Positions 1,877 through 10,657 of a DNA stretch of 64,000 bases are shown in pieces; within the stretch, counting starts at the first letter, position 1; each line of letters opens with the position of its first letter. Both the position numbers and the translations under genes were made by a program. Under the pieces are notes generated by a model. The model made no database searches and had not been told where the DNA came from. It was given only the letters and a program-made list of their open reading frames with translations. Origin of the DNA: Candidatus Aphodoplasma sp. (GTDB lineage Bacteria > Bacillota > Clostridia > UBA1381 > UMGS1253); contig JAZQIM010000021.1 in NCBI GenBank assembly GCA_045541115.1, positions 34,775-98,774 of the forward strand. Reading direction: 5' to 3'.

Positions 1877-3454
1877 TTATTTTGCATAATCGACTGCGCG
1901 CATCTCACGTATTACGTTAATCTTAATTTGTCCCGGATATTCCATTTCATCCTCAATACGTTTAACGATTTCGCGTGCCATCAAAACTACACCTTCATCT
2001 TTTACATCTTCGGGCTTAACCATGATTCTTATCTCACGGCCTGCCTGAATAGCAAATGATTTTTCAACGCCCTCAAATGAGTTTGCAATCTCTTCGAGCT
2101 TTTCAAGACGCTTAATATATGTTTCAAGATTTTCACGTCTTGCGCCCGGTCTTGCAGCCGATATCGCATCACATGCCTGAACGATTGCAGCGACAACTGT
2201 CTGCGCTTCAACATCTCCATGATGTGCCATGATTGCGTGAATTACGTCGTTACTTTCCTTGTATTTCTTTGCTATGTCAGCGCCGATTGTAACGTGCGAG
2301 CCTTCCATTTCATGGTCGACAGATTTTCCAAGGTCATGCAGAAGACCTGCTCTTTTTGCAAGAGCAATATCAACACCGAGCTCGCCTGCCATAACGCCCG
2401 CCAGATGTGACACTTCGATAGCGTGCTTTAACACATTCTGACCATAGCTTGTTCTGAACTTCAATCTTCCGAGAAGTTTGATGATTTCAGGATGAAGTCC
2501 GTGAACACCTGTTTCAAATGTAGCACGTTCGCCTTCTTGTTTGATATCATTTTCAACCTCACGACGTGCTTTTTCAACAGTTTCCTCGATGCGTGCAGGG
2601 TGGATACGTCCATCTACAATAAGCTTTTCGAGTGCAAGTCTTGCAATTTCACGCCTGATAGGATCAAAGCCTGATACGATAACAGCTTCAGGAGTATCGT
2701 CGATAATAAGGTCGATTCCCGTAAGCGTTTCAAGTGTACGAATGTTTCTGCCTTCGCGACCGATGATTCTGCCTTTCATTTCATCGTTCGGTAGCGGCAC
2801 AACCGATACAGTAGTTTCTGCAGCGTGATCAGCTGCAACCTTTTGTATTGCAAATGCAACAATATTTTTTGCGTTCTTTTCAGCGTTATCTTTTGCTTCC
2901 TGCTCAATGTCTTTAATCATAATTGCAGCTTCGTGGCGGATCTGGCTTTCCAAATCCTTTAGCAAAAATTGTTTTGCTTCTTCTGCAGTAAGACCGGACA
3001 ATTTCTCAAGAGTTTCAATCTGTTGTGCCTTAAGCTTTGCAAGCTCTTCTTCTCTTTCTTCAAGGCTCTTAAGCTTGTTGTTAAGGTTTTCTTCTCTTGC
3101 CTCAAGAGCTTCGCTCTTTTTATCGAGATTTTCTTCTTTTTGCTGGATTCGTCTTTCCTGACGCGAGATTTCGCCACGTCTTTCTTTGACTTCCTTGTCG
3201 AATTCCAATCTCATTTTGTGATTTTCTTCTTTTGCTTCAAGCAAAATTTCACGCTTTTTGCTCTCGGCTGCTTTTTTAGATTCTTCGAGAATTCTTTTTG
3301 CTTCATTTTCAGCTCCGCCAACTACGGCTTCAGCTTCTTTTTTTCTTTTTTCATAGCCTGCTTTTGACGCTGCTATATAAACTATAACAGCTATTGCAAC
3401 CGCAACAACTGCGGATATTGCTATAGTAATTAAAATTTGTGTATCTATAGCCAC
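1877..3454 (-). CDS. rny: ribonuclease Y
   Basis: N-terminal TM helix, long K/E-rich coiled coil, KH domain ([12 protein letters not shown]), HD domain ([10 protein letters not shown]...LLHDLGK). Start is GTG just after GAGGAGG. Confidence 0.95.
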
Positions 3455-3940: not shown

Positions 3941-5293
3941 ATGAATGGTTATATGAGTGTACCTTTGTCGCAAAGGATATCGCAAAGGAAATATGATCGC
4001 CGGAGAAGAAGGCGGAAATATATAAAAATTTTAATCTGGATTTTAGTATTTATAATTGCTGCAGCGGCCGGATTTTTTGGCGTAAAAGCGCTTGTAGGTA
4101 TTTTCGGCGGTGAAAAGCAGATAAAAACGTCTCAAAAAATAAAGCCCGAGGCAATCATAGCGCAGGCTGACTTTCTTGCGGCGGGATATGATTATGATGC
4201 GGCAATCGAAAAAATAAAGTCGTATGGCGAAGATTATGCGTCAAAAAAGGAGCTTACAGAGGCAATTGCAAGATATGAGTCGACAAAAGCAACGATGGTT
4301 CGCTATGCTGATGTCACGGATATCACGCATGTATTTTTCCATGCACTAATCGTTGATACATCAAAGAGCTTTGACGGAGAATATACTGATGACGGATACA
4401 ATCAGTACATGACAACTGTAAGTGAATTTGAAAAAATGATGCAGGAAATGTATGCGAGAGGGTATGTTCTTGTCGATATTCACGACATCGCATATGAGCA
4501 GACACAGCCTGATGGTACGACGAAGTTTGTGCCCGGAGATATAATGCTCCCGGAAGGGAAAAAACCTTTTGTCATGTCACAAGACGATGTGAATTACTAT
4601 AGCTATATGAAGGGCGACGGTTTTGCAGATAAAATTGTAATAGGCGATGACGGTATGCCGACATGTGAGTATATTTTAGACGATGGAACTGTTGTGCGCG
4701 GCGATTATGACCTTGTGCCTATTTTGGAAAAGTTTATACAAGAGCATCCCGACTTTTCGTATAGGGGTGCACGCGCAACGCTTGCACTTACGGGCTATGA
4801 CGGCGTTTTAGGTTACCGCACATGCCCTACGGCATCTGATTATAACGAAGCAGATATAGAAAAGGCAAAGGCTGTTGCGACGCGTATGCGTGAGCTTGGA
4901 TGGACTTTTGCAAGTCATAGCTGGGGACATCTTTTGTACGGCGAAATCAGCATGGAGAAATTTACATCAGACGTTACTAAATGGGAAGAGCAGGTAAGAC
5001 CGATTATCGGCGATACCGACGTATTGATATATCCTTTTGGAAACGATATTGCTGGCATAGGAAAATATACAGGCGAAAAGTATGAAATGCTTCACTCGCT
5101 TGGCTTTAGATATTATTGTAATGTGGATTCGGCGCCTTCGTGGCTACAGATTCGCGATGATTATGTAAGACAGGGAAGAAGAAACCTTGACGGATACCGT
5201 ATGTGGTATTCGCCGGAGATGCTTAAGGATTTATTTGAGGTAGAGAAGGTGTGGGATAACACAAGACCGACACCTGTTGCACCAATATCATAA
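3941..5293 (+). CDS. membrane-anchored polysaccharide deacetylase family protein (tentative)
   Basis: R/K-rich N-terminus plus one TM helix. HSWGH (NodB-like HSxxH) and an SQDD acidic motif. Strong SD GGGGGAG. Confidence 0.5.
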   Translation: MNGYMSVPLSQRISQRKYDRRRRRRKYIKILIWILVFIIAAAAGFFGVKALVGIFGGEKQIKTSQKIKPEAIIAQADFLAAGYDYDAAIEKIKSYGEDYASKKELTEAIARYESTKATMVRYADVTDITHVFFHALIVDTSKSFDGEYTDDGYNQYMTTVSEFEKMMQEMYARGYVLVDIHDIAYEQTQPDGTTKFVPGDIMLPEGKKPFVMSQDDVNYYSYMKGDGFADKIVIGDDGMPTCEYILDDGTVVRGDYDLVPILEKFIQEHPDFSYRGARATLALTGYDGVLGYRTCPTASDYNEADIEKAKAVATRMRELGWTFASHSWGHLLYGEISMEKFTSDVTKWEEQVRPIIGDTDVLIYPFGNDIAGIGKYTGEKYEMLHSLGFRYYCNVDSAPSWLQIRDDYVRQGRRNLDGYRMWYSPEMLKDLFEVEKVWDNTRPTPVAPIS

Positions 5294-5338
5294 TTTCTGC
5301 TTGCATCTGAAGTAAGTGATTTAAATTTGGAGGAATAA

Positions 5339-7003
5339 ATGAAAAAGCGAAATATAGTTTTGTTGTCAATAGTAGTAATTTTGTCATTGTTTGCTCTTTG
5401 GTTTATGAGCGTAAAAGGTTTTTTCAAAGATCCGGCAAACTTTATGCAGCTTGCAAAAAACAAGGTAGCATCAATTTATTATGACATTACAAAACAAGAA
5501 CCGAAAATTCAGGAGGAAATCATTGTTACAGCCGACGGACATAAGGTGCTTTTAGACAAGCCCAAGGGATATTCTCTTTCATTTCCAATCGATATGAATT
5601 TTGATTTGTCAATAAGCCCTGAACAGATTAAGGCGTACAATGATGATTTAACAGTTATCGTAACACGCGAGTGGGCGCCATATGCTGACGTTATGTGGTA
5701 TGTAGATAATTATTTAAATAATTACTATTTAAATGAGCACTATATTGAAACGAATAATATAACGATACATGAGCATAAAAAGTATGAGCATAACGGCGCG
5801 CAGGCACAGTTTGTTTCGCTTTCGCGCACACCAGATGAGCAACTTATCGAGCGTCAAAACGACTATTCATATTTTTATGTGCTTTCAAAAACAGGTCCGC
5901 AGGCTTTTTTCCGTGTGATGTTTAAGACAGATGATTACGAAAAAAATGCGCCTGTTATAAATGAAATTATAAACTCGTTTGAGGAGATACGCCTTGAGGG
6001 AGAAAATGTGTTTAAAGAAAAATATGAGCCGAATGTGAATAAAAACTGGAATGACGAAACGAAGGCACTGTGGAAAAAAATAAACTCAAAAGACGAATTT
6101 ATGTGGGGAATATTCGTTGACGGTGCATACGATAAAGAGCGAAATCATAAGTGGCTAAAAGACCTTGAACAAAAGGTTGATTATGAGTTTGACTTTGCAC
6201 TTCACTATGTGAATTTAAGCTGGGGTTTTCCTGTGGAGTCGATGCAAAAATTCTATGACGACAATAAAATTACAGAGCTAACGCTTCAGGTATCAAACTT
6301 TAACAATGATGATTTGTTTGGCAAAAACATTAACTTCGATATGTATGACGGACTGCTCGATGAGCAAATACGTGAGTTTGCACGCGGCGCAAAGGAGTTT
6401 GGACATCCGTTTTTGTTTAGACTTAATAATGAGATGAACAGTGACTGGGTAAATTATTCGGGCGTGGCAGCACTTTCTGACCCGGAAATATTTATTTCAA
6501 ACTGGCAAAGAATATACGACATATTTGAAGAAGAAGGCGTAGACAATGCAATCTGGATATTTAATCCGAATGCAGAAGATTGTCCGCCGGCACACTGGAA
6601 TTCATATATCTCATATTTTCCGGGCGATGAGTATGTGCATATGATTGGCATGACGGGCTATAATACGGGCGAGTATTATAAAGAGCTGTATCATGAAAAG
6701 TGGAGAACATTTGACGAAATATATAAAGAGCCATACGAGAAGTATATGAATGTGTTTGGTAAGTTCCCGTTTGTTATTACCGAGTTTGCATCGAGCTCTG
6801 TCGGTGGCGACAAGCCGGGCTGGATACGTGATATGTTTGAGTCAATAAAGAAGTATGACAATATTAAAATGGCGCTTTGGTGGAGCAGTGCGGATTATGA
6901 TATGCGCCCCGAAACATATAAGCATGTTGCAAGGCCATACTTTTTGGATGAAACAGATGAAACGACAAAGGCATTTCGTGAAGGCGTAAAAGAATATAAA
7001 TAA
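5339..7003 (+). CDS. anchored/secreted glycoside hydrolase, GH26-like (tentative)
   Basis: N-terminal signal/anchor. FLFRLNNEMNSDW resembles the GH26 acid/base block RxxHEMNGxW. ITEFASS resembles the nucleophile block. Confidence 0.5.
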   Translation: MKKRNIVLLSIVVILSLFALWFMSVKGFFKDPANFMQLAKNKVASIYYDITKQEPKIQEEIIVTADGHKVLLDKPKGYSLSFPIDMNFDLSISPEQIKAYNDDLTVIVTREWAPYADVMWYVDNYLNNYYLNEHYIETNNITIHEHKKYEHNGAQAQFVSLSRTPDEQLIERQNDYSYFYVLSKTGPQAFFRVMFKTDDYEKNAPVINEIINSFEEIRLEGENVFKEKYEPNVNKNWNDETKALWKKINSKDEFMWGIFVDGAYDKERNHKWLKDLEQKVDYEFDFALHYVNLSWGFPVESMQKFYDDNKITELTLQVSNFNNDDLFGKNINFDMYDGLLDEQIREFARGAKEFGHPFLFRLNNEMNSDWVNYSGVAALSDPEIFISNWQRIYDIFEEEGVDNAIWIFNPNAEDCPPAHWNSYISYFPGDEYVHMIGMTGYNTGEYYKELYHEKWRTFDEIYKEPYEKYMNVFGKFPFVITEFASSSVGGDKPGWIRDMFESIKKYDNIKMALWWSSADYDMRPETYKHVARPYFLDETDETTKAFREGVKEYK

Positions 7004-7004
7004 T

Positions 7005-7036
7005 AAAAAGCCACCTGCTATGCGGGTGGCTTTTTT
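7005..7036 (+). terminator. intrinsic terminator
   Basis: Stem GCCACCTGC / GCGGGTGGC (7010-7030) followed by T6. Confidence 0.85.
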
Positions 7037-7064
7037 GAAAACTTAAAAAAATTTATTTTAAGTA

Positions 7065-7093
7065 TTGCTTTTTTTGCGATTTTATGTTAAACT
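7065..7093 (+). promoter_or_regulatory. possible weak promoter of the toxin-like cassette
   Basis: TTGCTT, 17-nt spacer, TAAACT. The spacer coincides with direct-repeat copy 1. Confidence 0.3.
7069..7087 (+). repeat. direct repeat copy 1 (TTTTTTTGCGATTTTATGT)
   Basis: Matches 9439-9456 (TTTTTTGCGATTTTGTGT) apart from one substitution and one extra T. Confidence 0.65.
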
Positions 7094-7102
7094 TCTTATT
7101 AC

Positions 7103-7127
7103 AAGCAAAACGAACGTATGTTTGGTT
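7103..7127 (+). repeat. inverted-repeat left arm (AAGCAAAACGAACGTATGTTTGGTT)
   Basis: Its reverse complement equals 9383-9405 except for a 2-nt gap. Lies in the 5' leader, 18 nt before ATG 7146. Confidence 0.8.
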
Positions 7128-7145
7128 TAGGAAGGAGGTGAAATT

Positions 7146-8432
7146 ATGAAGATAGAAAACTATCCGCTGAATTCATTTAATACAATATTCCCACTGGACA
7201 AAACTTTTAAAAAGGATTATAATGGAATAAATACATTGCAAAAAAATAAAAATGTTTTTGATGATACATTTGCAAGCTCTGCTCTCGATTACCTGTACTC
7301 TAATGATAATCTGGGCAAAACACAGAGTTTTTTGGAAAACAACGGTTTTCCTTCTGCTGAAGAACGTCAGTATAACAGGGAAGCTTACGGCGCAGCAGAT
7401 GAACGTAAGCTAGTGCTTGATTTACTTAACAGCAAGTCAAACAGCATATTAAATCCACAACTTCCCAATGATACTGACCGTGCATTTTTAAGCGGACTGA
7501 TGGGAGAAGAAGAGGAAAAACTTGATTATCAAAATCAAGTAGCAAATGCAAACAATTCAATAAAAGACTGGCAAAACGTTTTTTTCGGTTCACCACTTGA
7601 GAGTCAACTAAATGGATTTGCCAATTCAGCACTGCAAAAGATAAATACTTCTTCGACGGCACAGCCTACATTTCTTAATGTAAAACCCGCTGAAACTTTT
7701 GATTTTACGCAAGAAAATGACAGTAATAATGAGCAATTCATGGATATGTCTGATACAAACAACACATTGGCTATGGTAAATTTTAATCATAACAATTATG
7801 AATCAGGCTACACAAGCGAGGATCAAGTACAAAACCCGGATGCTTACGAATTCGGAAGAGATTCAGACACTTTCAAAATTATTTCTGATCTTCAAAAGCG
7901 CTGGCTTGCCACAGATGATCCGCAGCAAAGAGATGCATTACATAACATGGCAAACGAAGCAAGACGATTGGCTCGCGAAGGAACTCCGCTCAAATATGCT
8001 CAGGACGAAGTTATGGATTTACTTCATGCAAATGCACAAGAAGCTCAACAATATATAGATACTCTAAGAAAGAGTCCGTTATATGACTGGAGAATGGATT
8101 TTGATTATAAGGCTACATATCTAATTGCTATGGTAGATAAAGGTCCTTGGGATTATAAGCTCAACTCTGAGACGTGGCGAGTGCCTGTGTGGTATACAAC
8201 CTATAACGGAGAAAATTTGGAATATAATAATGAAAATCGCAGAAATTGGATGGCCTGGATATATTTTGATGGCATGATTATGGGCGCTGATAAATTGGGA
8301 AATATGAATATGGCGTATGTTGGCGCTAAGTTAGGATTGCCACGTATTGTATACCAAAACTTTATCACAAATGATAAAGACGATCCTTTTTGGATACAAT
8401 ATGGTATTGATCTTGCAGAGCAAGGAAGGTGA
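7146..8432 (+). CDS. hypothetical protein with C-terminal polymorphic-toxin-like domain (resembles toxin type 44 / Ntox44; tentative)
   Basis: Strong SD AGGAAGGAGGTG. The C-terminal ~120 aa contain KGPWDYKLN ... FDGMIMGADKLGNMNMAYVGAKLGLP, which recalls the GPWDxK / GNxxYGxxG pattern of that family. No signal peptide, LXG, WXG or Rhs-type N-terminus was recognised. Confidence 0.45.
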   Translation: MKIENYPLNSFNTIFPLDKTFKKDYNGINTLQKNKNVFDDTFASSALDYLYSNDNLGKTQSFLENNGFPSAEERQYNREAYGAADERKLVLDLLNSKSNSILNPQLPNDTDRAFLSGLMGEEEEKLDYQNQVANANNSIKDWQNVFFGSPLESQLNGFANSALQKINTSSTAQPTFLNVKPAETFDFTQENDSNNEQFMDMSDTNNTLAMVNFNHNNYESGYTSEDQVQNPDAYEFGRDSDTFKIISDLQKRWLATDDPQQRDALHNMANEARRLAREGTPLKYAQDEVMDLLHANAQEAQQYIDTLRKSPLYDWRMDFDYKATYLIAMVDKGPWDYKLNSETWRVPVWYTTYNGENLEYNNENRRNWMAWIYFDGMIMGADKLGNMNMAYVGAKLGLPRIVYQNFITNDKDDPFWIQYGIDLAEQGR

Positions 8433-8436
8433 CAAG

Positions 8437-9378
8437 ATGGTAAAAAAAATCAAATTTATACTGTTTTTCGCTCTTATATTATTGCTGTTGTGCACTTCTT
8501 GTGCAAAGACCGAGTACGAACCAACGCATCCAAATAAAGTTTCTTTTGGAAATATCAGCAGTGGTGGCTACTTTGTAGAATGTGAAAACGGTTACATCTA
8601 TTTTGATGACGAAAAATGTACTTTCTACAAAAAAGATTTGCTGACAGATACAGTTGAACCTATTGCAAAAAGTCTTATGTGTTCGAGCTTGAACTTGTAT
8701 AACGATTGTTTATATTATACCCGTGGCGATCCCGGCCCCATATGGAAAATGTCTGTGGACGGCAAGCAAAAAAAACCATTGACGTTTTTTAGACAAGGAA
8801 AACAATTAGTTGTATATAACGATCATATGTATTTCTGCCGTTACTCTGCATACACCGATGAGCCGTTGGTTCGGACGGATTTAAACGGAGGAAATGAACA
8901 GGTGTTAGTACAGAAAGTAGGTGGCTATTGCATAATTAACGACCGTATTTATTATACGGATATTGCTATTAAAACGGAGCCAAAACTTTGCAGTATGAAG
9001 ACAGACGGAACAGATGTGAAGCTCATTAGGTATGCATATGCGACTGGTTTGATGCCTATGGGAAATAAGCTGCTTTATTCGGATTACTACAGAGAAAATA
9101 AAATGTTTATTTATGATTTGGACACTGATACAGAAGTTTGTATTTGCGAAGATCGTTGTGTGAGTTTAAATGCAAATGAAAAATGGATTTTTTACAGAAA
9201 TCAAAATGATAATGGAAATTTGTATAAAATACGCCCGGATGGAAGTGAGCGTCAAAAAATTCTTGATGTGGAGGTATCTTATATTCACGTTATAGGAAAC
9301 AGACTTTTTTACAAAGATTCCTATTGGAATAGACCGTTGGATGGCTCGTGGGTTTTTAAATACATTGACATTGAGTAA
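8437..9378 (+). CDS. DUF5050-type beta-propeller lipoprotein
   Basis: Start moved to ATG 8437 (GGAAGGTG SD). Signal peptide ends ...LLLLCTSC. Repeated blocks (NDCLYYTRG..IWKMSVDGKQKKPL, NDRIYYTD..SMKTDGTDVKLI, WIFYRNQNDNGNLYKIRPDGSERQKIL) are typical of DUF5050. Confidence 0.6.
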   Translation: MVKKIKFILFFALILLLLCTSCAKTEYEPTHPNKVSFGNISSGGYFVECENGYIYFDDEKCTFYKKDLLTDTVEPIAKSLMCSSLNLYNDCLYYTRGDPGPIWKMSVDGKQKKPLTFFRQGKQLVVYNDHMYFCRYSAYTDEPLVRTDLNGGNEQVLVQKVGGYCIINDRIYYTDIAIKTEPKLCSMKTDGTDVKLIRYAYATGLMPMGNKLLYSDYYRENKMFIYDLDTDTEVCICEDRCVSLNANEKWIFYRNQNDNGNLYKIRPDGSERQKILDVEVSYIHVIGNRLFYKDSYWNRPLDGSWVFKYIDIE

Positions 9379-9382
9379 CTAT

Positions 9383-9405
9383 AACCAAACACGTTCGTTT
9401 TGCTT
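9383..9405 (-). repeat. inverted-repeat right arm (AACCAAACACGTTCGTTTTGCTT on + strand)
   Basis: Partner of 7103-7127. Starts 4 nt after the stop codon of the lipoprotein gene. Confidence 0.8.
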
Positions 9406-9412
9406 AAACAAT

Positions 9413-9444
9413 AAAAAGACACATCAGCTGGGTGTGTCTTTTTT
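9413..9444 (+). terminator. intrinsic terminator
   Basis: Stem GACACA (9418-9423) / TGTGTC (9433-9438) followed by T6. Confidence 0.8.
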
Positions 9445-9456
9445 GCGATTTTGTGT
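9439..9456 (+). repeat. direct repeat copy 2 (TTTTTTGCGATTTTGTGT)
   Basis: See 7069-7087. Confidence 0.65.
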
Positions 9457-9458
9457 GC

Positions 9459-9487
9459 TTGACTCGCAGTAAAAAGTATATTATACT
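9459..9487 (+). promoter_or_regulatory. sigmaA-type promoter
   Basis: TTGACT, 17-nt spacer, TATACT, upstream of the 9524 gene. Confidence 0.5.
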
Positions 9488-9523
9488 TTTAATAAATACA
9501 TCGTAAATTGGGAGGCGGCGCAG

Positions 9524-10657
9524 ATGAAATACAGACGATTAAACAGAAGCGATATTGACGTATCCTTACTCGGACTCGGATGTATGCGATTTCCCAAAAT
9601 AGAAGACACACAGAAAATAGATGAGCTAAAAGCACAAGAGATTATCGACTATGCATATACGCACGGTGTGAATTATTTTGACACGGCTTTTATATATCAC
9701 GAGGGACTTTCGGAAGAGTTTATCGGCAAGGCACTTAAAAAGTATCCGAGAGATACATATATGATTGCAGATAAAATGCCCGGCTGGCTTTTAAATGATG
9801 CATCTGACGTAGAAAAGATTTTTAATACACAGCTAAAGCGATGCGACAGCGGTTATTTTGATTTTTATCTGTTGCATGGTGTAGACGATGAGCGCTTCGA
9901 TGATAAGTATCGAAAGTATAAAGCAATTGAGTTTTTGGAAGAAATGAGAAAACAAGGGAAAATACGTCATCTCGGATTTTCGTTTCACGATACGCCTGAA
10001 GTGCTTGAGCGCGTCGCCGATGCGCATGACTGGGATTTTGCGCAGATACAGCTTAACTATCTTGATTGGGATTTGCAGCGGGCAAAAAAGCAATATGAAG
10101 TGCTTAAAAAAAGAAATATTCAGTGTATTATTATGGAGCCTGTGCGCGGAGGCGCGCTTGCTGATCTTGGCGATGAGGCAAATGGTGTGCTTAAAAAAGC
10201 CGAGCCTGATAAAAGTATAGCTTCGTGGGCGATTCGGTTCGCCGCAGGTTTGGAAAACGTGCTTACGGTTCTATCGGGAATGTCAAACATGGAGCAGGTA
10301 AGAGATAATGTAGAAACGGTTAGCAATCTTGAAGAGCTTGATGATGTAAAGAAAAGTACACTTTTTAATGCGCTTGAGATATACAGAAAAAAAGATATGG
10401 TAAAATGCACTCATTGTAATTACTGTATGGATTGTCCTTTTGGAGTAAATATTCCTGAGGTTTTTGCGGTGTATAACAGATACCTTGAAACTTTAAACAG
10501 GGTTGAATTTTTATCATCATACGAAAAAATAGGAAAAGACCATGGCGCCGATATGTGCACAAAATGTAATCGATGTCTTCAGCTTTGTCCGCAAAAAATC
10601 GAGATTTCTGCAAAGCTTGAAAAGATAAACGAGCTTGTAGCAAAATTTAAAAAATAG
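9524..10657 (+). CDS. aldo/keto reductase with C-terminal 4Fe-4S ferredoxin-type domain
   Basis: LLGLGCMRFP AKR N-terminus and YLLHG. C-terminal CxxCxxC..CP plus CTKCNRCLQLCP cysteine clusters (COG1453 architecture). Confidence 0.8.
   Translation: MKYRRLNRSDIDVSLLGLGCMRFPKIEDTQKIDELKAQEIIDYAYTHGVNYFDTAFIYHEGLSEEFIGKALKKYPRDTYMIADKMPGWLLNDASDVEKIFNTQLKRCDSGYFDFYLLHGVDDERFDDKYRKYKAIEFLEEMRKQGKIRHLGFSFHDTPEVLERVADAHDWDFAQIQLNYLDWDLQRAKKQYEVLKKRNIQCIIMEPVRGGALADLGDEANGVLKKAEPDKSIASWAIRFAAGLENVLTVLSGMSNMEQVRDNVETVSNLEELDDVKKSTLFNALEIYRKKDMVKCTHCNYCMDCPFGVNIPEVFAVYNRYLETLNRVEFLSSYEKIGKDHGADMCTKCNRCLQLCPQKIEISAKLEKINELVAKFKK

Follow-up and report, generated by a model that had tools for sequence, protein, structure and literature searches.

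In Bacillus subtilis, a stretch of the 5'UTR of the hbs mRNA pairs with the 3'UTR over 14 bp and modulates RNase Y cleavage and RNase J1 access (Braun, Durand and Condon 2017, PMC5737220). [quoted passage not shown] 2013, PMC3868564). The locus considered here lies in a window of 64,000 nucleotides (the whole stretch of DNA analyzed) from Candidatus Aphodoplasma sp. As with hbs, it would give a Firmicute mRNA with 5'/3'UTR complementarity, in this case predicted from the sequence, with 15 nt perfectly matched and ~26 bp in total. The hbs message is monocistronic, serves a housekeeping function, and has a highly structured leader, whereas the present 5'UTR, folded by itself, shows no predicted structure (z -0.1), its arm begins at the predicted +1, the bicistronic operon spans 2.3 kb, and the arrangement recurs in a family of mobile toxin loci. 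The likeness to icaR is that a Gram-positive mRNA would form a duplex between its own 5'UTR and 3'UTR; the icaR duplex reportedly creates an RNase III substrate, and the duplex predicted here would be long enough for that enzyme. The icaR 3'UTR reportedly pairs with the Shine-Dalgarno region itself, whereas the duplex predicted here stops 2 nt short of it and could thus influence translation only indirectly. To our knowledge, no conserved inverted repeat shared between 5'UTR and 3'UTR has been described as a frame of polymorphic toxin loci. The features of the locus are as follows.

5339-7003, + strand: gene for a GH26-like glycoside hydrolase, the left neighbor (phmmer match to the GH26 domain of C. 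thermocellum endoglucanase H, 2bv9, E 2e-25)
6997-7010, + strand: left copy of the direct repeat TAAAYAATAAAAAG, found by repeat search and compared with the empty-site sequences
7004-9405, + strand: inserted segment (left terminator, promoter, 5'UTR, toxin gene, immunity-like gene, and right arm), missing from empty-site strains
7005-7037, + strand: terminator hairpin carried by the insert (14-nt arms, 93% complementary, then a T-run)
7065-7093, + strand: predicted cassette promoter (-35 TTGCTT at 7065-7070, 17-nt spacer, TG at 7085-7086, -10 TAAACT at 7088-7093)
7070-7087, + strand: left copy of an 18-nt direct repeat, TTTTTTGCGATTTT(A/G)TGT, equal to the spacer of the cassette promoter
7103-7127, + strand: left arm of the inverted repeat, AAGCAAAACGAACGTATGTTTGGTT, 18 nt 5' of the ATG at 7146
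7146-8432, + strand: polymorphic toxin gene, 428 aa (helical N-terminal domain, ~aa 1-165; disordered linker; divergent Ntox44-like C-terminal domain, ~aa 225-428)
8437-9378, + strand: gene for a DUF5050 (LRP1-like beta-propeller) protein (Pfam PF16472, 117.9 bits, E 6.5e-34, residues 37-294)
9383-9405, + strand: right arm of the inverted repeat, 4 nt past the stop codon at 9376-9378, the left arm's reverse complement with a 2-nt gap
9414-9445, + strand: native GH26 terminator, now used by the cassette (13-bp hairpin and T-run)
9439-9456, + strand: right copy of the 18-nt direct repeat (terminator T-tail plus GCGATTTTGTGT)
9459-9487, + strand: promoter-like site of the aldo/keto reductase gene (TTGACT, 17 nt, TATACT; consensus scan 10/12)
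9524-10657, + strand: gene for an aldo/keto reductase with a C-terminal 4Fe-4S domain, the right neighbor (Pfam PF00248, E 9e-43; Fer4_9, E 4e-8)

The two arms lie where the first-pass annotation had placed them, with the same sequences, and the domain matches listed above support its names for both neighboring genes. The perfect core of the repeat is 15 nt long (7103-7117 against 9391-9405), and the final 15 nt of the right arm, ACGTTCGTTTTGCTT, are the motif conserved throughout the family. A perfect 15-nt inverted repeat within 6900-9600 was seen in 2 of 300 dinucleotide shuffles. Across the 64-kb window, the 15-mer was found with up to 2 mismatches at the two arm sites only, and at least 2 such matches occurred in 3 of 100 shuffled windows. 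Only two open reading frames, 7146-8432 and 8437-9378, lie between the arms, which do enclose the gene pair precisely, and neither encodes a transposase or integrase, as had been stated. Transcription is predicted to start at 7101-7103, and the left arm begins 0 to 2 nt from this point; the end of the arm is 2 nt ahead of the Shine-Dalgarno sequence GGAAGGAGG (7130-7138).

The promoter at 7065-7093 was read from the sequence; a consensus promoter scan of the window did not list this site. Its layout is conserved 5' of paralogous toxin genes in nine related loci (L009, L011, L012, L014, L016, L026, L039, L040, and L041), which suggests promoter activity. The 5' arm follows the conserved TGnTAAACT -10 box by 7 to 9 nt (n = 9 loci), with variants of the left arm at the same distance in 8 other loci, and the terminator begins 8 nt 3' of the 3' arm. 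Because promoter and terminator flank the two arms so closely, we infer that both arms are carried on one transcript, with its 5' and 3' ends at the predicted positions; a search of RNA-seq runs for the locus sequence returned no match.

A mobile cassette had been one of two readings proposed for this locus, and empty sites do exist. In contigs from three bovine-gut metagenome runs (X1, X6, and X8), the GH26 stop codon (7001-7003), which forms the left insertion boundary, is joined directly to the right-hand terminator, and the contigs depart from the window sequence exactly at 7003. The joint runs from 7003 to about 9433/9455; the 45 letters between 7003 and 9455 were reconstructed as 23 new letters plus 9433-9454, and the sequences read TAAATAA joined to AAAGAAAAGACAC (X1) or to AACAAAAAGACAC (X6). 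The 2.4-kb segment 7004-9405 is an insertion, present in some strains of this cattle-gut bacterium and absent from others. A homolog of the 9414-9445 hairpin stands directly 3' of the GH26 stop codon in the empty-site contigs, so the insertion point is between this stop codon and the native GH26 terminator, and not between the GH26 terminator and the aldo/keto reductase promoter as first supposed. The hairpin at 7005-7037 is not part of the empty-site allele and recurs in unrelated metagenome contigs; it is predicted now to terminate the GH26 gene and to insulate the cassette promoter. Empty, filled, and alternative alleles share one site, where an X2 contig suggests an orphan-only allele. Homologous pairs of toxin and DUF5050 genes also occur in other genomic contexts, and loci of the toxin family adjoin six different tRNA or tmRNA genes.

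The product of the first gene had been called toxin-like, and the exchange of domains among its relatives, together with its Ntox44-like C-terminus, bears this out. Relatives sharing the N-terminus (49 to 87% identity) end in Ntox44-like, Tox-WTIP, SLT/Tse3-like, Hydrolase_2, peptidase C39/C70, or other domains, and relatives sharing the C-terminus begin with different N-termini (PG_binding_1 and RHS). This joining of a conserved N-terminal domain to alternative, unrelated C-terminal toxin domains identifies 7146-8432 as a gene for a polymorphic bacterial-warfare toxin, with a presumed toxic activity. The N-terminal domain matched no family in Pfam, NCBIfam, or PHROG, a difference from known polymorphic toxins, and is rare (only 32 representative clusters among 1.84 billion proteins); we propose that it is of the delivery type. 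The C-terminal domain matched Ntox44 (Pfam PF15607) over residues 330-399 with 14.6 bits (E 0.042), which is below the gathering threshold of 24 bits, and 10 of 23 of its homologs matched Ntox44 at E up to 1 (best, 2e-5). By these matches it is a distant relative of Ntox44, not a certified member. An AF2 model of the toxin (pLDDT 71) yielded no fold match in the PDB.

The DUF5050 protein exceeds the PF16472 gathering threshold (27 bits). Its N-terminus has a signal peptide and a lipobox-like LLCTSC; set against the lipobox [LVI][ASTVI][GAS]C, the window sequence ...LILLLLCTSCAKTE fits at -1 (S) and -2 (T) but departs from it at -3 (C). A homolog in L042 has a canonical LFGC lipobox, and we regard the earlier label of lipoprotein as probable. 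A DUF5050 gene lies 3' of this toxin C-terminus in the window, in L009, L010, L011, and L034, and also in L042 under a PG_binding_1 N-terminus. The gene therefore tracks the toxin C-terminus across two different N-terminal domains, and in orphan modules as well, and other toxin C-termini are followed by other genes. The exceptions are L012, in which a 113-aa gene lies between the toxin and DUF5050 genes, and L043, in which the downstream gene has no DUF5050 match. Taken together, the DUF5050 protein is likely the cognate immunity protein. Orphan modules of toxin tail and immunity gene, none of which is in the window itself, are found in relatives L015, L017, L031, L033, and L039. In its conserved N-terminal domain, interchangeable C-terminal toxins, immunity gene directly downstream, and orphan modules in relatives, the family resembles known polymorphic toxins; orphan toxin-tip/immunity modules are reportedly a feature of the CDI (cdiA-CT/cdiI), Rhs, and LXG/T7SS systems (Zhang et al. 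2012; Poole et al. 2011).

The arms recur in related toxin loci and were found only together with this toxin family. The 15-mer is unchanged in 16 of 18 distinct 3' elements from other loci and always lies between stop codon and terminator, behind at least 4 unrelated downstream genes and after orphan modules. It has changed at 3 of 270 positions, compared with 16 of 128 in the adjacent 8-nt spacer, and the terminator stems 3' of it vary by compensatory changes. The core CGAAC/GTTCG is identical in all 5' and 3' arms. Judged by this distribution, the toxin family conserves the inverted repeat as a frame around its operon, and the repeat does not represent a pair of element ends.

What would such a frame do? 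The best reading of the inverted repeat, to which we give a probability of about 45%, is that the 5' and 3' ends of the mRNA pair with each other, and this had been the second proposal of the first-pass annotation. Its geometry fits. The arms are complementary at 23 of 25 nt with one 2-nt bulge, and the 15 perfectly matched nucleotides compare with the ~14 nt or more of UTR pairing of the hbs/icaR type. The window duplex is predicted at -33.4 kcal/mol and outranks every other site within 6 kb (z -6.9); a minimal construct of 5'UTR plus 3'UTR has a predicted fold of -45.9 kcal/mol (z -7.4). Pairing potential is kept in seven cognate loci, each of whose 5'/3' pairs is predicted to be more stable than shuffled arms (from -16.5 to -33.4 kcal/mol, with z from -2.9 to -9.3). 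In register, 77% of cells pair, versus 28 to 46% with the partner slid. One compensatory change was found: in the distant L012/L026 clade (~52% aa identity in the N-terminal domain), with arms AAGCGAAACGAA and TTCGTTTCG(C/T)TT, an A-U pair is replaced by G-C through a double change, accompanied by G-U wobbles that fit the sense RNA only. This covariation (A-U in four sequences, G-C in two) concerns a single pair, changed in two loci that are related to each other, among sequences that cannot be counted as independent. The pairing reading is weakened by uncompensated changes in the 5' arm, whose outer 8 nt differ in this way in L009, L014, L039, and L041 (AAGCAATT, AAACACTT, and AATCATCT). Within the L009 and L014 loci, a site other than the cognate one makes the best duplex partner.

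Segment 7004-9405 is best explained as a self-contained toxin/immunity expression cassette without a recombinase gene of its own, composed in order of an insulating terminator, an extended -10 promoter, the toxin gene, and the gene for the probable DUF5050 lipoprotein. The left arm would be the first ~25 nt of the predicted mRNA and the right arm the last ~25 nt ahead of the terminator hairpin, and in the full-length bicistronic message the two would form about 26 bp at about -33 kcal/mol. Such a duplex would bury the 5' end of the mRNA and place a long helix beside the ribosome-binding site. Message stability, processing, and possibly translation of the toxin would then depend on read-through of the immunity gene. 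Candidate enzymes are RNase J1 and RNase Y, if the duplex protects, or RNase III, if it is cleaved; the gene at 1877-3454 of the window, from a reading of its translation, presumably encodes RNase Y.

The main rival to mRNA end pairing, which we consider unlikely, places the function in the DNA: the 15-mer and the terminator after it would form a junction at which modules of toxin C-terminus and immunity gene are exchanged, stacked as orphans, or inserted at new sites, with a second copy, in the course of degenerating, in the 5'UTR. The work would fall to a recombinase whose gene lies elsewhere or to recombination, driven by homology, between the conserved N-terminal coding region and the 3' element. 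The right insertion boundary (9405) falls exactly at the motif end, as does the break in homology with L011, a coincidence that would suit a function in the DNA as well; the left boundary (7004), however, lacks the motif. In L015, L017, L031, L033, and L039, the motif follows every module, including the orphans, and it stays constant behind differing upstream genes. It is perfect even in L013, L015, and L017, which lack the -10 box and the 5' arm, so it is conserved for a reason beyond pairing with that arm or by gene conversion. The 22-mer of motif plus spacer is confined to 3 genomes of one clade and adjoins toxin or DUF5050 genes in every case in which flanking genes can be read, and the variety of alleles and of tRNA or tmRNA neighbors marks a family that is clearly recombining. 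Against this, no integrase, transposase, or invertase was found within 5 kb in the window or in the annotated flanks of six relatives (L009, L011, L012, L039, L040, and L041), the genes called near 7 loci include no recombinase, and 15 nt by itself is too short for RecA-type recombination. A junction also leaves unexplained why the reverse complement of the motif should lie exactly at the transcript start, and the compensatory change in L012/L026. Integron attC cassettes offer a partial likeness, in that head-to-tail modules each close with a conserved sequence and, after it, an imperfect palindrome able to form a hairpin. Here, however, each full module has its own promoter, no integrase was found, the hairpin looks like a terminator (T-run and covarying stems), and no R''/R' attC core sites were recognized by eye.

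It is less probable still that both arms are operators for a regulator encoded elsewhere, which would bind the quasi-palindromic core ACGAACGT/ACGTTCGT both where transcription starts and where the operon ends, and so repress or loop the toxin operon. The span of the 5' arm, +1 to +25, is a classic repressor position, and the constant core and strict conservation of the 3' motif would suit sequence-specific recognition. But it is hard to see why an operator should sit 2.3 kb downstream, always between stop codon and terminator. The 5' arm is free to vary in its outer half, neither the cassette nor its neighboring genes include a regulator, and the G-U pairs and shifted helix extent of L012/L026 fit RNA pairing better. 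Arms of 15 to 25 bp in inverted orientation, with a promoter just outside one of them, might also suggest that a site-specific invertase flips the 2.3-kb operon against the fixed promoter as a phase-variable ON/OFF switch of the toxin. We think this very improbable: contigs of 12 metagenome runs contained no strand-changing joint at 7117 or 9391 (though a minor orientation may be masked in assembled contigs), no invertase gene is nearby, the 5' arm is absent in three loci, and the repeated 3' motifs of orphan-bearing loci are direct repeats of each other. The mobile-cassette proposal holds in that empty sites exist and homologous pairs occur elsewhere. In its literal form, a non-autonomous MITE-like transposon with 23/25-nt terminal inverted repeats and an 18-nt target duplication, it is scarcely credible. 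Inverted repeats, the 18-nt direct repeat, no transposase inside, and presence/absence polymorphism do recall MITEs, but the empty-site comparison contradicts this form, as only the right arm ends at a boundary. The inserted DNA begins ~100 nt before the left arm and brings a terminator and a promoter of its own on that side, so the ends of the element are not those of the inverted repeat; elsewhere, too, the promoter beyond the arm is conserved together with the cassette, no target duplication adjoins the arms, and their copies are tied to this toxin family alone.

The 18-nt direct repeat itself is present as first reported (17 of 18 positions agree), but it is not the duplicated target or att-like site proposed. 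A rough estimate puts it no more than marginally above chance, since the T-run of a terminator tail supplies 6 of its 18 bases. Its left copy lies inside the insert and has homologs, TTTTTTCAAGTTTTGTGT and TTTTTTGAGATTGTATGA, in the promoter spacers of paralogous loci, and L009 and L011 lack the direct repeat. At the position of the right copy, the X4 contig, whose upstream sequence differs from the GH26 stop, reads TTTTTTGCGCCCTGCCAT, and mismatch counts suggest the same for the empty-site contigs X1 and X6, in place of the single repeat copy expected of a target duplication. The true insertion boundaries are adjoined instead by a repeat overlooked in the first pass, TAAAYAATAAAAAG, at 6997-7010 and 9405-9418; each copy heads a terminator-like stretch, and the two stretches match at 76% of positions across 41 nt. 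The cassette had looked AT-rich by eye, and windowed GC confirms a small difference (0.361 for the insert versus 0.401 for the whole window), which is the lowest among 2.4-kb windows, with 0.3% of such windows as low or lower.

The first-pass annotation had read the toxin-like and lipoprotein genes as a possible mobile cassette and had called for a search for alleles lacking it. By aligning Logan contigs of bovine-gut metagenomes to the window, we found such empty sites in three runs, X1, X6 and X8, whose contigs (1301, 722 and 160 nt, respectively) run from the GH26-like gene to the reductase gene without the cassette. The X1 contig reads ...TAAATAA, then AAAGAAAAGACACATCTTCGCGA, then TGTGTCTTTTTTGCG...TGCTTGACT. 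In strains without the cassette, the GH26 stop codon thus leads straight into the hairpin that, in the window, lies on the cassette's right side (9414-9445); this places the insert at 7004-9405. The insert carries its own terminator, a predicted promoter, two genes and the right arm of the inverted repeat, and it uses the native terminator. The features of the region are as follows.

5339-7003, left neighbor, GH26-like hydrolase (2bv9, E 2e-25)
7005-7037, insert-borne terminator
7065-7070, predicted promoter, -35 box TTGCTT
7085-7086, predicted promoter, TG
7088-7093, predicted promoter, -10 box TAAACT (17-nt spacer)
7103-7127, left (5') arm
7146-8432, toxin gene
8437-9378, DUF5050 gene
9383-9405, right (3') arm
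9414-9445, native terminator
9524-10657, right neighbor, aldo/keto reductase with a 4Fe-4S domain

It is very probable that the cassette is a self-contained unit inserted at this site. Its suspected AT-richness was borne out, with a GC fraction of 0.361 against a window mean of 0.401, the lowest of any 2.4-kb stretch in the window. The sequences flanking the insert, TAAATAATAAAAAG (6997-7010) and TAAACAATAAAAAG (9405-9418), may be a short target duplication or a microhomology used in insertion; a repeat search found that the terminator-like stretches 6997-7037 and 9405-9445, each starting TAAAYAATAAAAAG, are 76% alike. Other alleles were recovered as well. A contig from run X2 (436 nt, depth 3) passes from 7003 through 18 nt, GATGAAAATATTTTGCTT, into the last 23 nt of the toxin gene (from 8410) and the DUF5050 gene, apparently a toxin-less, immunity-only allele at this site. 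The final bases of this stretch, TTTTGCTT, equal the last 8 nt of the conserved 15-mer described below, and the contig provides independent support for the cassette belonging here. Two contigs from run X4 (4940 and 4992 nt) continue from the GH26 stop (7003) into AAATAATTATCCACCCGCATAGCGGGTGGT... and return with ...CGTTATACAAG ahead of the native terminator (9433). They appear to carry a different insert, and the site may be a hotspot. The GH26-gene relatives in species-representative genomes (L001-L008) share no conserved neighbors downstream and so yielded no empty site. Scans of JGI metagenomes with the GH26 protein and a profile of the toxin N terminus gave no match from either, nor did searches for exact matches to the GH26 and reductase proteins of the window. 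The insert-borne hairpin AAAAAGCCACCTGCTATGCGGGTGGCTTTTT (7002-7036) recurs with 1 to 4 mismatches in many unrelated bovine-gut metagenome contigs (summed depth of 33 in X7; also X5, X8, X9, X10 and X12) and may be a recurrent terminator type or a small repeated element.

The 18-nt direct repeat noted at first pass, TTTTTTGCGATTTT(A/G)TGT, is present at 7070-7087 and 9439-9456 (17/18 identical). Its left copy lies within the insert, where it forms the promoter spacer; this promoter layout is kept in nine paralogous loci, with spacers such as TTTTTTCAAGTTTTGTGT and TTTTTTGAGATTGTATGA. The right copy consists of the native terminator's T-tail and 9 further nt, and at this position the X4 contig reads TTTTTTGCGCCCTGCCAT; mismatch counts suggest that the X1 and X6 empty-site contigs match the X4 reading. 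Because the left copy is inside the insert and the right copy differs in X4, the direct repeat is not a duplicated target. No such 18-nt repeat was found in L009 or L011, two relative loci in other genomes. Campbell-type integration through the repeat predicts a left-type terminator in the empty site, where the right type was found, and was rejected; literal terminal inverted repeats with a target duplication were likewise discarded, as the insert begins at 7004 and the left arm at 7103. Between the window and X4 (and, as mismatch counts imply, X1 and X6), 7 changes fall within the 8 nt at 9448-9455 (ATTTTGTG versus CCCTGCCA), and these are exactly the bases that make the right copy. This cluster could have arisen by chance or as a templated patch with the promoter spacer as its source.

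The toxin gene encodes a 428-aa product with no above-threshold match in Pfam; neither it nor the DUF5050 protein has a match in NCBIfam or PHROGs. Its N-terminal ∼165 residues are 49 to 87% identical to proteins with unrelated C termini, including Tox-WTIP, SLT/Tse3-like muramidase, Hydrolase_2 and peptidase C39/C70, and its last ∼200 residues are also found behind PG_binding_1 and RHS-associated N termini. The relatives thus have a polymorphic-toxin architecture. The C-terminal domain is a distant relative of Ntox44: the window toxin scores 14.6 bits (E 0.042; threshold, 24 bits), and 10 of 23 homologs of the domain match Ntox44 (best, 2e-5). The N-terminal domain is predicted to be helical, is rare (32 representative clusters in 1.84 billion proteins) and appears to be previously undescribed. 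An AlphaFold model of the toxin (pLDDT 71) had no fold match in the PDB. The second gene encodes a DUF5050/LRP1-like beta-propeller (E 6.5e-34) with a signal peptide and a lipobox-like LLCTSC at its N terminus. A DUF5050 gene stands behind this toxin C terminus under two different N-terminal domains, and orphan modules retain it with just the last ∼30 nt of the toxin gene. Tracking the toxin C terminus and persisting in orphans is the behavior expected of a cognate immunity gene, and the propeller, a probable lipoprotein, is likely the immunity protein, a role that would be new for DUF5050. In another Clostridia metagenome-assembled genome (MAG), locus L042 carries a PG_binding_1/Ntox44-like toxin and DUF5050 pair flanked by two copies of a 172-aa NrdG-like gene (1134-1652, 5122-5640) and a partial nrdD, with an rve transposase downstream. 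The inverted-repeat frame was not found at L042, which has the same toxin C terminus and another N terminus.

Homologous toxin and DUF5050 pairs occupy other positions in other genomes: after a tmRNA gene in L009/L010 (identified via the homolog in L040), after tRNA-Gln in L011 and in yet another context in L012. No relatives were found on viral contigs or plasmids. Loci of the family lie 150 to 300 nt downstream of a tmRNA gene or of various tRNA genes (Gln, Met cluster, Arg, Ser), as follows.

L011, 222-295
L040, 3501-3845
L041, 3-455
L014, 4776-4852
L017, 4612-4703

No integrase was seen at these five loci, and no repeated tRNA 3' end was evident in L011. An upstream hairpin, GGAAAACACAATTTTTAATTGTGTTTTCC, is common to four tRNA/tmRNA-linked loci and therefore travels with the cassette. 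Orphan modules lie behind a first toxin/immunity module in L015 (6631-7729), L017 (7005-8027), and L031, L033 and L039 (1927-2950). Each runs in the order terminator, toxin tail (the last ∼30 nt of an Ntox44-like gene, GIDMA(K/E)QG...), DUF5050 gene, and second 15-mer with terminator. One MAG, JAZNVH01, has four paralogous toxin loci (L013, L014, L015 and L017), and L014 alone retains a good Shine-Dalgarno sequence as well as the 5' arm and the -10 box. L013, L015 and L017 keep intact 413- to 419-aa open reading frames and have in common a ∼45-nt deletion, about 45 nt upstream of the toxin ATG (locus position 5001), that removes all three elements. They may be silent copies.

The inverted repeat itself stood up to closer inspection. 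The left arm, AAGCAAAACGAACGTATGTTTGGTT, ends 18 nt before the toxin ATG (7146), and the right arm, its reverse complement minus 2 nt, begins 4 nt past the stop codon at 9376-9378. The perfect core is 15 nt (7103-7117 versus 9391-9405). A perfect 15-nt inverted repeat within 6900-9600 arose in 2 of 300 dinucleotide shuffles; these shuffles, together with conservation in relatives, rule out chance. No further copies of the 15-mer with up to 2 mismatches occur in the 64-kb window. Downstream of toxin loci of the N-terminal family, the 15-mer ACGTTCGTTTTGCTT is found in constant orientation, once each in L009, L011, L013, L014, L030, L034 and L037 and twice each in L015, L017, L031, L033 and L039; L020 has the variant ATGTTCGTTTCGCTT. 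It sits behind unrelated downstream genes, always a few nucleotides past the stop codon and 8 nt ahead of a terminator hairpin in which stem variation is compensatory. Across 18 distinct elements, 3 of 270 positions are changed in the 15-mer and 16 of 128 in the 8-nt spacer next to it, so the motif is under a constraint of its own. The 22-mer of motif and spacer occurs in only three of 185,579 species representatives, all Aphodoplasma-like Clostridia. The reverse-complement arm lies 7 to 9 nt past the -10 box, at the predicted mRNA start, in the window and in L009, L011, L012, L014, L016, L026, L039, L040 and L041. Its outer 8 nt are variable (AAGCAAAA, AAGCGAAA, AAGCAATT, AAACACTT, AATCATCT or a 5-nt deletion), and CGAAC is constant in all 5' arms. 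L037 (SIG449 contig 4, reverse-complemented, about 200-520) is a decayed locus with a truncated toxin gene, in which a microhomology deletion fuses the promoter spacer to codon ∼9 of the N-terminal domain; its 3' motif is intact 2.5 kb downstream, and its terminator is cut in the loop.

Can the two arms pair in the mRNA, as the first-pass annotation had also suggested? We put the probability that this is their function at about 0.45. The best duplex partner of the window 5' untranslated region (UTR) within 6 kb is the 3' arm (-33.4 kcal/mol, z -6.9). Folded alone, the 5' UTR is unstructured; a minimal construct of both UTRs is predicted to form a ∼26-bp duplex plus the terminator (-45.9 kcal/mol, z -7.4). 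In 7 of 7 loci with both arms known, the cognate duplexes (-16.5 to -33.4 kcal/mol) beat shuffled arms (z -2.9 to -9.3). The distant L012/L026 clade combines the 5' arm AAGCGAAACGAA with a 3' arm of its own, TTCGTTTCG(C/T)TT, located between stop and terminator as in other loci. Relative to the window, this clade has an A-U to G-C double change and G-U pairs that form only in sense RNA, and its helix grows outward, not inward. In-register pairing holds for 77% of the cells of a hand-anchored alignment; sliding the partner lowers this to 28 to 46%. Against pairing, outer-half changes in the 5' arm are uncompensated in L009, L014 and L039, the cognate site is not the strongest partner within L009 and L014, and L013, L015 and L017 have perfect 3' motifs despite the lost 5' arm. 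The more distant N-terminal homologs L019 and L027 have no outstanding 5'/3' duplex, and Rfam gave only subthreshold noise at the cassette, on the terminators. A search for RNA-seq runs containing the cassette sequence gave none. Another distant homolog, L023, has a local 5' UTR hairpin, CAAGC-AAAA-GCTTG, about 40 to 70 nt upstream of locus position 5001, where the window has its 5' arm, consistent with a requirement for a paired 5' end.

In the reading we favor, an expression unit with complementary mRNA ends, the toxin/immunity cassette would be transcribed from its extended -10 promoter, starting at about 7101-7103. The 5' arm would stay single-stranded until the polymerase had cleared the immunity gene and transcribed the 3' arm, and the ends would pair shortly before the terminator formed. 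Pairing of the 5' end protects Firmicute mRNAs from RNase J1 and end-dependent decay. The ∼26-bp duplex would also be an RNase III substrate, 2 nt from the ribosome-binding site. In both cases, what becomes of the toxin message would hinge on finishing the immunity cistron, a simple safety logic in which the message cannot reach its final structure before transcription of the immunity gene is complete. To our knowledge, only a few individual genes have been described in which the two ends of a bacterial mRNA pair at long range. Articles on two of them describe a 14-bp 5'/3' interaction in hbs that modulates RNase Y (PMC5737220) and 5'/3' UTR pairing in icaR (PMC3868564).

The main rival, which we consider unlikely, is that the 15-mer is a cassette junction acting at the DNA level. 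Its end coincides with both the window's right insertion boundary and the break in homology of L011, and it stands behind every module, orphans included, and persists where the 5' arm is gone; junctions, circular or tandem, in which the motif runs into AAACAATAAAAAG and then CCACCTGC... would speak for this reading. However, the surroundings of seven loci showed no recombinase, no 15-mer copy stands at the left insertion boundary, and the reverse-complement copy at +1 is left unexplained. If the 15-mer does act on DNA, it marks a cassette-exchange mechanism with no known enzyme. RNA and DNA roles of the arms are compatible, and a rather improbable combination of them would make the 15-mer and hairpin the junction of an unrecognized, integron-like exchange system for interbacterial toxins without a linked integrase. 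A promoter-bearing locus (the window or the L014 type) would swap toxin-tip/immunity modules with the promoter-less, intact but silent loci L013, L015 and L017. With the 5' UTR copy of the site serving as RNA partner too, expression would be restricted to complete toxin-plus-immunity transcripts. That the arms are operators of a regulator is improbable. An invertible segment is very improbable, no strand-changing joints having been seen in assembled contigs, and a literal MITE is hardly credible. A minus-strand promoter at the 3' arm was dropped, because the region is part of a hairpin and has no -35 box.

Taken singly, 5'/3' UTR pairing, orphan modules and polymorphic toxins are already known. 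What appears new, from computation on few and related sequences, is a family-wide inverted-repeat frame around mobile toxin-immunity operons. The family illustrates the movement and diversification of interbacterial weapons in uncultured cattle-gut Clostridia, with presence/absence alleles, orphan modules and apparently silent copies. Some 3.5 kb upstream of the cassette, the window also has an RNase Y-like gene (1877-3454, minus strand), named from its KH/HD-type open reading frame, which suggests that the host has Firmicute-type RNA decay machinery.
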